Shown in pieces: positions 15,001-21,000 of a stretch of DNA of 35,421 nt. Source of the stretch: Candidatus Micrarchaeaceae archaeon (lineage in GTDB: Archaea > Micrarchaeota > Micrarchaeia > Micrarchaeales > Micrarchaeaceae). Numbering within the stretch: the stretch's first letter is position 1; every line of letters begins with the position of its first letter. The DNA lies in the NCBI GenBank assembly GCA_050013715.1, contig JBEKES010000005.1, forward strand, positions 1 through 35,421. The letters run 5' to 3'. Position numbers: made by a program.

Positions 15001-18000
15001 GTACGTAGGCAGGTTAAGCAGGGAAAAGAACATAGACACGCTGATAAAGGCGGCGCAGATACTCAAGAAAGAGAACATAAGGTTTGCGCTTGTGGGAAGC
15101 GGCCCTGCCCATTCGTATTATGAGAAAATGGTGCACAAAATGCATCTGAATGACAGGGTCAAGTTCGTAGGTTTCATAGACAACATGGAGCTTCCAAAAT
15201 ACTATGCTGCATGCGACGCGTTCTGCATACCCTCTACGTTTGAAACGCAGGGTGTTGTTTCGCTGGAGGCAATGGCATCAGGAAAGCCGGTAATAGGAGC
15301 AGATTACCTTGCCCTCAAAGAGCTGATAAAAAACGGGAAGAATGGCGAGAAGTTCAAGCCAAGGAACAGTAAAGACTGTGCAGATAAAATAAAGAAGGTT
15401 ATATATAATATTGACTCATATAAAGAAATGGCAGATACGGCAAAAACATACTCCATAGAGAGGACAACCACAGACCTATTAGATTTATATAAAGGATTAA
15501 TCAAATGATAGATTATACAAACAACATTAGTGATATCCAAGGCGATTGACTGGAAAACAAGATACAAGAAATACAGAATGAAGGCAAAGCTCCAACAAGG
15601 GCAGGGCGTGGCGCATCCGATGCTAGATACAAAGAGGACCCTAACAAACAATCTTTGAATACGCTCATAAAAGAGTCGAATAATCCTGCAGCCATGACCA
15701 TCAAGAAAGACATAGACGACCTAAGAAAGGAGCGCACCAAGCTCATCATAAGGGTAAAAGACTCAAGAAGAAGATTAAGCTACAAGGAAGCGGAGGAAGC
15801 CGCAATAAACAAGCTATTGCAGATGAAGAAAGAGGAGGACAAGGACGGCTCGAAAAGAAAGAGAGTAGGCTACCTCAAGCACATGAAGCAGAAGTTCGAA
15901 TTCAAGATATCAACTGAGGCATCATCACTATCGCAGGAGAAGGAGATAATTAGGAAGATAAACGAGATAAACCAGGAGCTGGACGAGGCTCTTGCATCTG
16001 TTAGGCTTGAAAGGAAATTAGGCTTCATAAAGAAAGATGTTGAAGATTACCAGAAGGGCATAACAGATATAAACAAGAGAATCGAGGAATTGGATGCAAA
16101 GCTCGATGGTTTATACGTAAATCTGAGAAAAACATTAGGCATAGGAAGCTGGCAGAACAAGCAGAAGCAACAGCAGAAGAAAGTGCAGCAGCAACAGCAG
16201 GATGTCAATCTGGAGGACATAGCTGTCATAAAGAAAAAGACAAAACAGAAACCAGAAGAATAAAAGAAAATAAAAAAACAAAAAATAAAAACAAAGAACA
16301 AATAAAAAAGTGAAAACAGTGAAAGTTACATTTTACGGTGGAGCAAAGGAAGTCGGCAGGAGCTGCGTAATGATAAGCACAGAGAAGACAAGAATTCTTC
16401 TCGATGCTGGCATTAAGCTAGGCGAAGTCGAAGAGCATCCACTGATACAGGACAAGGATTTAAACAGAATAGACGGTATTTTCATATCGCACGCGCATCT
16501 TGACCACATAGGTTATTTGCCGCACATATACAGCGCAGGATACAAAGGACACATATACACCACAAAACCAACCATGGAGCTTACGAACGTTCTGATAAGC
16601 GACTACATGAGGATATCTAATCCCCAGGATGTCACAAAGGACGGATTGAACAGACTTCAGAAAAGCTACAAGGTAGTTGAATTCAAAGAAGATGTAAGAT
16701 TGAATGACCTTACCATAAGGTTCATACCTTCTGGGCACATAGTAGGAAGCTCGATGATAACGGTAAGCGACGGAAAGAGCACTCTGATATACAGCGGTGA
16801 CTTGAATCTGTCCAAGACAAAATTACTGGAAGGAGCGGATACCAAGAACATTACGGCAAAGACGCTCATCATAGAAAGCACCTACGGAGGGAGAAAGGAC
16901 ATATTCCCGAATGAGGGAGTAGTTGCACAGAAAACACTCAAGAGCATCAATGAAACGCTGAAACTGGGAGGCAAGGTCATAATACCATCTTTCGCGGTTG
17001 GCAGAGCACAGGAGATATTGCTGATGCTTGACGATTACATAAATTCAGGGCTATTGCCAAAGGTGCCAATATACGTTGACGGAATGATAAACAAGGCAAT
17101 GCGAATTCATAGGCATAATGTAATATACTGCAGAAAGGAATTGCAGAGAAGAATCTTAATGAGCGATTATGATCCATTCAAGAGCAGCAACTTCATACCA
17201 ATAGAGAGCAAGACCCAGCGAGCAAAGGCAGTTTCAACAGATGAAAGCTGCATAATAGTCACTACAAGCGGAATGCTTACTGGAGGTCCAGTGATTTTCT
17301 ACCTTTCGAAGCTTGCGGGAATCTCAACAAACAAGGTAATATTAGTTGGATATCAGGCAGAAGGAACACCTGGAAGGCAGTTGCAGGAAGGGGCAAAAAG
17401 AATCAGATTCGACAAGACAGTTATAAACATAGGTCTTACGGTTGAATCGCAGCATTTGTCCGCACATGCAGACAGGCCGCAGCTTGAACTAATGATAAAG
17501 AAGATCAACGGATTGAAGAATGTCTTCATAATGCACGGTGAGAAGAGCAAATCAGAAGAACTACGAGAGGACATATCATCAAAGTACAAGGCGATAGTTC
17601 CAAAGAATGAAGAGTCATTTGAAGTATAAAGATTGTTTCTATGTTAAGGCTTGGAAAGGGTAAACGCGCAATTGGAACCATAAAAAGCAGCGCAGATGAC
17701 TTCAGAGTAGAGGAGATAACAAATACGGGTCATATTCTTGAAATAGGGAAGCAATACACTCCTGAATTGCTGGGATTTAACACCCAGCAAGAGGGCAAGT
17801 TCGCTATTTTTGTAATGCAGAAGAAAGATTGGAACACAGCACAGGCATTGAAGACAATAGCAAGAAAGTTCAGAAGAGGCATAAAATCAACAAGCTTTGC
17901 AGGAACAAAAGATAGAACATCAATTTCAACGCAATTGTGCGGAATATTCGGAGTAAAACCAGAACAATTCAACGGATTCCACGTAAAGGACATAACAATT

Positions 18001-21000
18001 AACGGAGCATGGACGGGATCAGAAAAGATAAGGATGGGAGATCTCATCGGCAACAGGTTTGGCATAACAGTAAGGGATTTAGAATATTACGAGAATATCA
18101 AGTCCATAATAAATGAATTGGATGGATTTTTCCCCAATTATTTCGGCGAGCAGAGATTCGGCAACAGAAAGACAAACGTAGATATTGGAGTTAGCATTTT
18201 GAAAGGGGATTTCAAAAAAGCGGCATTGAATTTCCTCACGGAAACGCAGAACGAGACTAATGAAGACTCGAAGGCAGCAAGGGAAAGGCTGGCAAATGAA
18301 TTGGACTTCAACGAAGCGATGAAATACTTCCCAGAATACTTGAAATATGAAAGGATGATGCTTGAGTATCTGGCAAAGTATCCAGATAATTATGCAAACG
18401 CGATAAGGAAACTGCCAAGGTCCATATCGCTCATGTTCATACATTCAGTCGAAGACTATATATTCAACAAAGAACTTGAGGAAAGAATATCAAATAAGGA
18501 AACAGAACCGAAAAGCGGAGAAAACATATGCTATGAAAACAGCTATGGATTCCCAGATATTTCAAAAACAGGTAAATTTGATGAAAATGATAATAAAAAA
18601 GCATTCACATTGGGCAACATCATAGGTTTTGACACAGAATCAATTACAGAAATAGAGCAGAGAATACTTGAAGAGCTTGGATTGACTCTTGAATCATTTA
18701 AAGTGAAAGGCCTTAACGAACTTAATTCGAAGGGCACTTACAGAACATTGTTTGCACCTTTCAAAGATTTCTCGCACAAATATGAAGAAAATACTTGTGA
18801 AATGAATTTCTCTCTTCCTGCTGGTTCGTACGCAACAGTATTTCTTGACGAGATTCTGGAGAACAAAACATAAGTATTATTTCGACTTATTCCTTTTACT
18901 TTTAAATCTAGATAATTTCCTGTATTTTAGAATTAGGAATATGAAAAGAACAATTATGGCGCCTATGAAAAGTATAGCATAGAAGAAGCCGCTGCATACA
19001 AACAGAATCGCCAATATGGCAAGTACACTTTCAAGTAAGTCTTGACTGGTCATTGCCTTGTCAATCGCAAGTTCATTGACTATTGCTTTTTTATTTGCCA
19101 TACGTAGTTTAGAATGCGATACTATTTATCTGTTCCAGATATTAAGATCGTAATCGCCAGTATATGTATTATAAACTAAAATTAAGCACATAGTTTCTTA
19201 TGCTTCTTTGCGCAATGTGCTTTCAGTTTGCTGTAATGTACTGGAATCTGTATTTGTATCTACTTTGATACCAACCACAAGTGAAGCAACATCTTCAGGA
19301 TTAAGATTTGCACCAAGGCAAAATCTGTCATTACCATAATCAAAACCACTAAAACTAAAGTACAAATGCCCATTGCCTTTTCTTGTGCTTACGCTTTGAT
19401 ACCATTCAAGAGACCATATACTTTCAATTTTGGCAAGTTCACCTTTTTCATCTATCCTAAATGATTTAGTTTGTTCTAAACCTTCTCCCTCAATCCAGAA
19501 CCATTTTCCCTTCAAAATTTTCCTTAATTCAGGATCTTGTGATAAATGAATAAGTACTTCCTGCTTTGTCATTGCACGATACCCGTTACTAATTAATTCT
19601 CTCATTGAACCTGAAAAATCTTCCTTTTCTTCTAATATGCCTATTGTTTTACCTAGACTTTGTATTTCTCTAAATTGTGCTTTTCTTTCTAGTAAGCTAG
19701 TAGTTGCCATTTTATCACGATATAATTATATTTATTATTAAATATGTAAATGTTCCTACCTAATTTACAGTTGATTTGTCATCAGATTTTATACCACTAA
19801 CTCTTCTTACGAAATCCATCCAGACACCTAATGGTCTCGCATAAAACAAATCAATAACAGCACCACCTCCCACTCCCAAAAGTGTTTTTTTGATATTTCC
19901 ACTTGTAGCAATTGCAAGTTGGGCTGTATAGATAGCACTCCAGTAAAGCTCAGTTACTGCTATATCTGCAACGAACTTTACACGTTCGCTTGTGTTTTCG
20001 TTTATTTTCATTTTTTTAAAACACCAATCCCTAAATATCCCATAGGGCCTACTTGTGAAAGTACATAACACTAAACCTAATGCTCTTTGTTTAAGTAGCT
20101 CTTTGCCACTTATATGTGCTATAAATAATTCATTTGCTCCAAATACGACAGTACTTAAACTACTAACAGAGAAGGTATCAACAAGAAAATTATAACCTTT
20201 GCTCTTTCTAATTGATGAGTCTTCACTAATTCTAAGCATTGTAAGAAAATCAAAGTTGTTAACCTTCCTAATAAATCCTCTTGATTTTGTTTCTTTATTA
20301 GTACCATTAACTTGTTTAGTTTCTATCTGCACTTTACCACAATATAATTACAAATTAGAAGATATATATAATTAACTAAATCAAAAAATGGGATCCGAAC
20401 CCTAATTTCTTAGACGTGTTACTTCGAACCGCCGGGATAGGTCTCATATTCTAAGGTTAAGAGCCTAGTCTTTGTCTTATGATAAGGAATAGGGAATTCC
20501 TAAACAGAAAATAAAGGTGGTTCATCCAAACCACTAGCCCATTTGAGAAGTTGACTCCTTGCTTTAGCTTCAAATAAAAATGATGGTTGTGATCCTAAGG
20601 TATCAGACCATGTTTGCTTAAATTCAAGTGAATAGTATAATTCTTTTGCACTCATATTTCTTACAATATCTTCCATATCTGGTCTAATCGCTTGTAATGA
20701 TTTTATTATATAACTATGTGCTGCAACATAATTGCCTTCGTAAGCGTATAAAAGTCCAATGCTTTCTAAATCTGAACTTAAATTCAATCTAGCTTCATAG
20801 AAAGGTATGCCAGAACCATCTTTTGCTTGTTTTTTTAGTTCTTTTTTGTCTATGTCTACTGCCCTTTTTAGAGTTCCAATGCTTTTGTCTAGTTTATCTT
20901 TGTCAGTTGAAACAAGCCTGATAAGTAGTTCTCTTGCCTCTTTAAATTTACCTTTTTCTTCCAGGTTTGTTACTTCCCTATCGATTTTTTGAGGATCTAT

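Follow-up and report, generated by a model that had tools for sequence, protein, structure and literature searches.

The analysed window, positions 1 to 35,421 of contig JBEKES010000005.1, belongs to a 92.9% complete, 72-contig assembly (GCA_050013715.1; genome G000) of a member of the Micrarchaeaceae. It contains a gene for the pseudouridine synthase TruD (archaeal Pus7), preceded by a ribonuclease gene, and several tRNA genes (Table 1). The best NCBIfam match of the ribonuclease was aCPSF1, with a score below cut-off, and the gene may be co-transcribed with truD. Four Illumina RNA contig sets (with small shares) did not cover truD, and such contigs cannot show pseudouridine.

Table 1. Features of the window discussed in the text.
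Feature	Position	Strand	Remarks
tRNA-Tyr(GUA), intron-bearing	3234..3335	-	ARAGORN, Infernal, T-loop table; T-loop U54-U55
tRNA-Val(UAC)	7848..7918	-	Ordinary T-loop U54-U55-C56; substrate without known psi55 enzyme
Beta-CASP metallo-beta-lactamase ribonuclease gene	16310..17629	+	PF10996, E 5e-30; stops 11 bases before truD
truD / archaeal Pus7	17641..18873	+	410 aa; sole pseudouridine synthase found in the genome
GTKD motif, TruD residues 88-91	17902..17913	+	Aligns with the same motif in 1Z2Z
Ser/Leu-type tRNA, intron-bearing	24044..24142	-	ARAGORN, Infernal; T-loop U54-U55-C56
tRNA-Ala(UGC), intron-bearing	30533..30643	-	Cys according to ARAGORN; G55, D-loop without GG

The TruD assignment of the preliminary description was borne out, the product matching PF01142 over model positions 14-412 (E 2.5e-99, 333 bits, cut-off 27) and exceeding the TIGR00094 cut-off (228.9 versus 172.2 bits). 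The nearest solved structure is 1Z2Z from M. mazei (E 6e-59). Asp91 in the GTKD motif is presumably the catalytic aspartate; G-x-K-D occurred in all 27 TruD sequences among those listed, and the family motif NxFGxQRFG is present as NYFGEQRFG. A residue change preceding GTKD is common to this TruD, to that of the Cbf5-bearing genome G301 and to one Thermoplasmatota TruD. In the profile census TruD was found in 74 of 74 genomes of the order Micrarchaeales versus 64 of 77 other Micrarchaeota, with 10 of these 13 losses falling in one family. It is single-copy in nearly all genomes, carries no extra domain and has ordinary branch lengths, and the TruD sequences of the order form one clade (95 SH-aLRT). 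Judged from its sequence, the gene is thus ordinary, intact and vertically inherited. As described, it was also the only synthase found in this genome: a single TruD match was obtained, and neither TruA (in the same search), TruB_N nor our own Cbf5, Pus10 and Nop10 HMMs matched.

The absence of Cbf5 and Nop10 from this genome was likewise confirmed. TruB_N gave no match in the profile search, and our own HMM from 30 Micrarchaeota Cbf5 sequences, run with --max against all six frames, reached a best E of 0.86; the best E of our own Nop10 HMM was 0.14. In the unfiltered search, 7 of 11 25-residue pieces of the held-out G301 Cbf5 gave E<0.01, and Cbf5 was also picked up by the Pus10_C and RluA profiles. 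A PUA domain was found in G301 and G006, and none in G000, G016 and G038. The one tblastn match at E 0.001 sits within Sua5. A census by profile search with a loose prefilter (G000 was also searched unfiltered) covered all 238 order genomes of at least 60% completeness, 237 of them in two large families (f1 and f2) and one, G301, in a third (f31). Cbf5 was found in none of the 237 f1 and f2 genomes, single-contig genomes included. G301 possesses Cbf5 accompanied by Nop10, both in place, so that the loss is not order-wide as had been claimed (Cbf5 in 1 of 238). The statement that other Micrarchaeota families keep Cbf5 applies to 159 of 172 genomes outside the order. Nop10, previously checked in four genomes, exceeded its cut-off in none of 74 order genomes but in 75 of 77 outside. 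A further 38 order genomes gave weak Nop10 matches, none of which reached the cut-off; among those listed, most span the zinc ribbon and lie in frames of 165-1200 aa, and four (G093, G111, G126 and G174) lie in short frames.

Gene order corroborates these searches. The ancestral clusters are L34e-cmk-L14e-cbf5-S13 and eIF2alpha-nop10-PAC2; at the Nop10 loci of relatives, eIF2alpha was found in 20 of 20 and PAC2 in 19 of 20. In G000 the nop10 slot is empty, with just one base between the stop of eIF2alpha and the start of PAC2. Of 30 order loci, 20 have no room for cbf5, as the end of L14e and a gene for a metallophosphoesterase or an aminotransferase are no more than 100 bases apart. A replacement gene in the cbf5 slot was sought and not found at order loci, and no conserved new ORF fills either slot in the order loci inspected; the 217-aa ORF following L14e in G000 belongs to no family and had no match in other order loci among those listed. 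In G000 neither cbf5 nor nop10 remains at its ancestral operon position, a clean deletion. The claim that RNA-guided pseudouridylation was given up therefore stands for f1 and f2 but, given G301, not for the whole order.

Our own Pus10 HMM (25 sequences; --max, six frames) yielded a best E of 0.13 in G000, and none of the 86 order genomes at least 90% complete had a Pus10 match. It is absent from 233 of the 237 f1 and f2 genomes and intact in four, and in these four the reported loss of Pus10 and the assertion that no known enzyme can make psi55 do not hold. In them the gene occupies a non-ancestral site and was probably re-acquired; it was apparently either taken up again on two occasions or retained in two lineages, so that psi55 can still be worth having. 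Contamination was considered for Pus10 of G200 (contig with 27.5% GC versus 30-31% for two others), and the gene was judged probably native, 14 listed frames matching G000 frames. Outside the order, full-length Pus10 is missing in 37 of 108 Micrarchaeota genomes; in contrast to f1 and f2, nearly all Micrarchaeota without Pus10 there retain Cbf5, which can make psi55 guide-free in vitro.

Several further families had been cited as missing. TruA scored above cut-off in none of the 74 order genomes and in 1 of 151 genomes overall, and RluA/RsuA (PF00849) in 0 of 131; weak RluA matches were, as read from the sequences, the G301 Cbf5, the G200 Pus10 and one transposase-like ORF. Gar1 was found in 0 of 5 genomes, four of which bear Cbf5 (archaeal controls, 3 of 4), and is uninformative as a marker of H/ACA loss. 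These absences are phylum-wide and say nothing about the Micrarchaeales lineage. Nep1 as a downstream marker was equally uninformative (2 of 81 overall, 0 of 45 in the order and just 2 of 36 outside). A TrmA-type m5U54 substitute was above cut-off in 0 of 5 genomes. Retention of the C/D machinery was confirmed by fibrillarin and Nop5, each in 5 of 5 genomes (G000 and four single-contig order genomes). An ORF at C26:5259-5807 is taken by us to be L7Ae-like from a motif alone; L7Ae is a component common to the ribosome and the C/D system as well as H/ACA.

The potential substrates are encoded by the organism itself, with at least 32 tRNAs above the Rfam cut-off in G000. U13 is present in 11 of 34 tRNAs, in 6 of these 11 within UNUAR, the TruD/Pus7 site motif (according to PMC12084886), which is also matched by U33-G34-U35-A36-G37 of tRNA-Tyr(GUA). 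U55 is retained in 31 of 34 tRNAs, in the context GUUCR and not UNUAR. Two tRNA-Ala genes of G000 combine G55 with a D-loop lacking GG, a combination found in 33 of 49 f1 and 5 of 29 f2 genomes; co-evolution of tRNAs away from U55 after enzyme loss was rejected, as the combination is also seen outside the order, in 23 of 93 genomes. rRNA motifs were not found in G000.

These observations are probably best explained by deletion of the H/ACA system during genome reduction, with TruD in an ordinary role and U54, U55 and rRNA mostly unmodified. The ancestor of f1 and f2 dropped cbf5 and nop10 from their clusters, so that H/ACA-guided pseudouridylation cannot run; the C/D system stayed. TruD would keep making psi13 in U13 tRNAs and probably psi35 in tRNA-Tyr, whereas T-loop U54 and U55 and the rRNA sites of H/ACA guides would remain plain uridine. 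The aPus7 of S. islandicus is reported to modify U13 only (PMC11077068). The loss was probably reductive, a stabilising, non-essential modification being discarded by small-genome symbionts and retained by the thermophile-looking relative G301; this temperature link is based on 5 proteins of one low-GC genome. From the gene content we infer, as did the preliminary description, that U55 is either unmodified or served by an unknown enzyme. By precedent the former appears likelier: according to PMC4014445, three hemoplasmas as well as M. genitalium and M. pneumoniae have no TruB, and single cbf5, nop10 and pus10 knockouts of T. kodakarensis are described as viable and heat-sensitive (PMC6138745). 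Counting against this reading are the U55 conservation, Pus10 regained or kept, the TrmY-like gene discussed below, and the reported essentiality of both Cbf5 and Pus10 in S. islandicus (PMC11077068), with no double knockout in the knockout literature consulted.

An unrecognised enzyme, non-homologous or diverged past profile reach, might make psi54 and psi55 in some or all genomes. It is kept alive by an orphan TrmY in genus g5, the only one with TrmY among the order genomes tested. An intact TrmY-like gene with intact-looking motifs was present in 3 of 5 g5 genomes tested, at a shared site though GC ranged over 28-47%, and its close relatives (58-74% identity) include one named Micrarchaeales; the genus has neither Pus10 nor Cbf5 (0 of 16 each). 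As known TrmY requires psi54 (PMC9508554), such a putative psi54 methyltransferase is a puzzle that hints at a hidden pseudouridine source, as might the conserved U54-U55. However, the protein scores below the NCBIfam cut-off, and TrmY is absent from 50 of 52 order genomes tested and was not found in G000 by profile search and tblastn. Five cross-detecting family profiles were empty in 131-238 order genomes bar the named exceptions, the vacated slots hold no conserved new ORF, and six weak candidates in G000 were Trm5, MFS, MCM and GNAT proteins plus two without family (141 and 162 aa). We regard such an enzyme as quite unlikely.

TruD itself might have widened its range to the T-loop or rRNA. 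The family is multi-substrate, Pus7 acting on 5S rRNA, snRNA and mRNA (according to PMC12084886), and TruD is universal among the order genomes searched. Its plain architecture, copy number and branch lengths argue against this, as do the mismatch of GUUCR with UNUAR, the occurrence of the pre-GTKD change in Cbf5-bearing G301 and Thermoplasmatota, and the concentration of TruD losses outside the order in one family. A widened TruD is therefore improbable. That psi54 and psi55 are still made, at least in g5, by an unprecedented route, be it a seventh synthase family or a T-loop-aimed TruD, is unlikely.

The Micrarchaeales lineage is host-dependent, and a host archaeon could provide the enzyme or modified tRNAs via cell contact. 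However, G000 encodes its own tRNAs, and Nanoarchaeum equitans and its host differ at position 54, with enzyme transfer deemed unlikely by the authors (PMC7337903), which leaves host supply very improbable. Artefacts of incomplete bins, introns or the prefilter, conceivable for a fragmented assembly and a loosely prefiltered census, are largely refuted and hardly credible, given the empty single-contig genomes, the assembled and adjacent flanking genes at both slots, the fragment control and the assignment of the tblastn match to Sua5.

The favoured reading, reductive H/ACA loss, has partial parallels. TruD resembles characterised TruD/aPus7 (1Z2Z, S. islandicus, T. thermophilus) in its full-length match, GTKD and NYFGxQRFG motifs and U13/U35 sites in tRNAs, but S. 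islandicus has Pus10 and Cbf5 beside aPus7, whereas TruD is the sole synthase found here. Nanoarchaeum equitans keeps Cbf5. Like f1 and f2, it is a DPANN symbiont described as lacking Pus10 and TrmY, but it has m5s2U54 as a substitute (PMC7337903); no TrmA-type enzyme scored above cut-off in the five genomes searched here. TruB-less Mollicutes similarly combine reduced, host-dependent genomes with the lack of a known psi55 enzyme; according to PMC4014445, however, all Mollicutes keep RluD for rRNA pseudouridine, whereas f1 and f2 have no known rRNA synthase and lost an RNA-guided RNP across two families. The supplement of PMC8481954 includes one Mancarchaeum genome and, in the columns shown, a CBF5 traceability of about 0.999; its text yielded no table of presence by taxon, and the absence might be visible in its figures. 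TruB loss is known in some mycoplasmas, and no earlier account of H/ACA loss in an archaeal clade was found in the literature searched, although gene-content tables of DPANN surveys may already record it.

H/ACA RNPs are regarded as conserved between archaea and eukaryotes, and psi55 is considered near-universal. With more than 230 species-level genomes without Cbf5, Nop10 and nearly always Pus10, yet with C/D guides, f1 and f2 would constitute a natural double null, and in this C/D-only clade the evolutionary paths of the two RNA-guided systems part. These organisms are predicted to lack guided pseudouridine in their ribosomes and psi55 in their tRNA elbows; should psi55 nevertheless be present, there must be a new enzyme activity.

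The truD gene of the window encodes a protein that covers the whole TruD profile (PF01142, E 2.5e-99), exceeds the TIGR00094 cut-off, matches the structure 1Z2Z (E 6e-59) and carries the motifs NYFGEQRFG and GTKD, the Asp91 of which we take to be the catalytic residue; no extra domain was found in it. Among named records, the closest carries the label Micrarchaeaceae, at 68% identity, and a gene for a beta-CASP ribonuclease ends 11 bases upstream. The TruD proteins of the order Micrarchaeales formed a single clade (SH-aLRT 95; quick tree, 12 order rows), and TruD was present in 74 of 74 order genomes versus 64 of 77 outside. 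The gene itself is ordinary, and the finding lies in what the genome is missing. G384 contains two near-identical TruD copies on separate contigs (L202, L205), reflecting a duplication or two strains binned together. Family f3, outside the order, displays the mirror-image loss, with TruD in 1 of 11 genomes and Cbf5 and Pus10 kept. Elsewhere in the window (13516-15508), a ribosomal cluster stops after genes that we read as L30 and L15, followed by a glycosyltransferase gene with no secY behind.

Features in the window, on other contigs (C) of the genome under study and at loci (L) of genus g5
Feature	Location	Strand	Remarks
truD	window 17641-18873	+	410 aa
P-loop kinase-like + QueC-like PP-loop domain fusion	window 21238-22839	+	533 aa
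tRNA-Ala	window 30533-30643	-	G55; D-loop AG in place of GG
tRNA-Ala	C9:5705-5776		G55; D-loop AG in place of GG
tRNA-Val(GAC)	C41:1-70		truncated by contig start; C at position 55
ORF just after L14e	C2:10265-10978	-	217 aa; no Pfam/NCBIfam family
TrmY-like methyltransferase	L183:1501-2067		genome G104
TrmY-like methyltransferase	L184:1501-2097		genome G048
TrmY-like methyltransferase	L187:1462-2067		genome G067

The genome (G000; 976,605 bases, 72 contigs, 92.9% complete) gave no TruB_N match. HMMs derived from relatives were run with --max on all six frames, stop-to-stop and with read-through, which avoids the prefilter; the best E values were 0.86 for Cbf5, 0.14 for Nop10 and 0.13 for Pus10. 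The six-frame search returned one TruD match and no TruA, bearing out the preliminary description, which had named this TruD and reported Cbf5, Nop10 and Pus10 as gone. As a control for intron-split genes, a held-out Cbf5 (G301) and Pus10 (G200) were cut into 25-residue pieces, of which 7 of 11 and 4 of 13, respectively, reached E<0.01. PUA domains were found neither in this genome nor in the single-contig genomes G016 and G038. A tblastn match at E 0.001 lies inside Sua5.

Among Micrarchaeota genomes at least 80% complete, Cbf5 was found in 0 of 129 from families f1 and f2 versus 159 of 172 others; at 60% completeness or more, the counts within the order were 0/124 (f1), 0/113 (f2) and 1/1 (f31). 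The loss had been proposed for the whole order as sampled: it holds throughout f1 and f2 but not in f31. The absence of Nop10, previously checked in four Micrarchaeales, holds more widely (above cut-off in 0/74 order genomes versus 75/77 outside). Pus10, counted from the match table, occurred in 0 of 93 order genomes versus 71 of 108 outside (full-length), where another 29 weak rows resemble Cbf5 cross-matches. RluA/RsuA was above cut-off in none of 131 genomes and TruA present in 1 of 151 phylum-wide; this sole TruA (L136, G044) lies on a 1.9-kb contig and is possibly contamination. The C/D system is kept as described, with fibrillarin and Nop5 each in 5/5 genomes tested. Since kin are not independent, these counts represent a single event sampled often. 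The census includes the unpublished genomes G029, the source of synteny locus L109, and G197, and no claim depends on them alone. In family f7 (G007, G052), Cbf5 is present, Nop10 was not found (2/2) and the Pus10_C match is only weak; this Cbf5 may possibly be guide-independent.

At 30 Cbf5 loci of other families, with the order L34e-cmk-L14e-cbf5-S13, cmk was present in 19, L14e in 16 and S13 in 13; the L14e label is our assumption from position, and the gene had no Pfam match. Of the 41 order loci examined, 30 have behind L14e either a metallophosphoesterase (16), which we read as Mre11-like, or a class-III aminotransferase (8); in 20 cases the distance is within 100 bases. In G000 the 217-aa ORF and a second ORF, to our eye Nudix-like, lie between L14e and the metallophosphoesterase. 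Nop10 loci contain eIF2alpha (20/20) and PAC2 (19/20); in G000 there is a single base between the stop codon of eIF2alpha and the start of PAC2. Prepilin peptidase accompanies Pus10 in 15 of 25 loci, and no Pus10 lies beside its gene in G000. The losses of cbf5, nop10 and Pus10 are deletions rather than in-place divergence.

G301 (f31, 82% complete) encodes a 279-aa Cbf5 that scores above the NCBIfam cut-off and whose gene follows cmk-L14e directly; its Nop10 gene comes behind eIF2alpha. The loss therefore maps to f1 and f2 on the assumption that these two exclude f31 as an outer branch; the base is left without resolution in the TruD tree. By their IVYWREL content, five proteins of G301 resemble those of thermophiles (0.438 versus 0.390 in the G000 orthologs, a small sample confounded by low GC). 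The absence of Pus10 likewise has exceptions: Pus10 with the GRED motif was found in G382, G383 and G384 (three of four genomes of genus g135) and in G200, adjoined by prepilin peptidase in none. These four group weakly with one another and also with Thermoplasmatota and Methanosarcinales sequences (97), and a single clade of all Micrarchaeota Pus10 was rejected (p-AU 0.02). Re-acquisition is only suggested, because the outside rows of the tree were picked as top matches to G382.

We regard the loss of the H/ACA genes as practically certain. U55 and the guided rRNA sites would then probably stay unmodified, a reading consistent with five Mollicutes reported without TruB (PMC4014445) and with the viable, heat-sensitive single knockouts described for T. 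kodakarensis (PMC6138745). Against it count the reported essentiality of both Cbf5 and Pus10 in S. islandicus (PMC11077068) and a TrmY-like SPOUT protein in genus g5, which has neither Pus10 (0/16) nor Cbf5 (0/16). This protein, absent from G000, was detected in 2/52 order genomes (0/39 outside) and in 3 of 5 g5 genomes tested, each time close to an alpha/beta-hydrolase gene that the three have in common (GC 28-47%); it scores 133-140 bits, below the NCBIfam cut-off of 183. In G104 the gene lies directly upstream of Sua5. Characterised TrmY is described as methylating only Pus10-made psi54 (PMC9508554), so the g5 protein has either another substrate or psi54 from an unseen route. A synthase hidden from the searches is an unlikely source of pseudouridine.

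A widened range of TruD is slightly less likely still. UNUAR is reported as preferred by T. thermophilus TruD (PMC12084886) and U13 as the only target of S. islandicus aPus7 (PMC11077068). Among 34 G000 tRNA genes, U13 occurs in 11 (always followed by AR, and in 6 of them within strict UNUAR) and U55 in 31; judged by sequence, the GUUCR T-loop context does not fit the UNUAR site. G55 tRNAs, present both in and out of the order, were rejected as a trace of enzyme loss; tRNA-Ala genes with G55 and D-loop AG were seen in 61 of 171 phylum genomes, in some of which other tRNAs show the pattern too. Supply by a host is improbable, and an artefact even more so.

Full-text literature searches retrieved no account of Cbf5 or H/ACA being lost in Micrarchaeota or in another clade of archaea, although subscription journals, bioRxiv supplements or arCOG tables may hold one. 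DPANN and Cbf5 were found together in one paper, on operon order (PMC10833476); others attribute archaeal psi55 to Pus10 and Cbf5 (PMC7912444) or describe N. equitans as lacking Pus10 and TrmY (PMC7337903). PMC8481954 covers one Mancarchaeum genome, and the accessible parts of its text, with supplement, contained no per-taxon table. In f1 and f2 the H/ACA loss is real and well-bounded, with Pus10 also gone almost throughout, and constitutes a further form of reductive RNA-modification loss.
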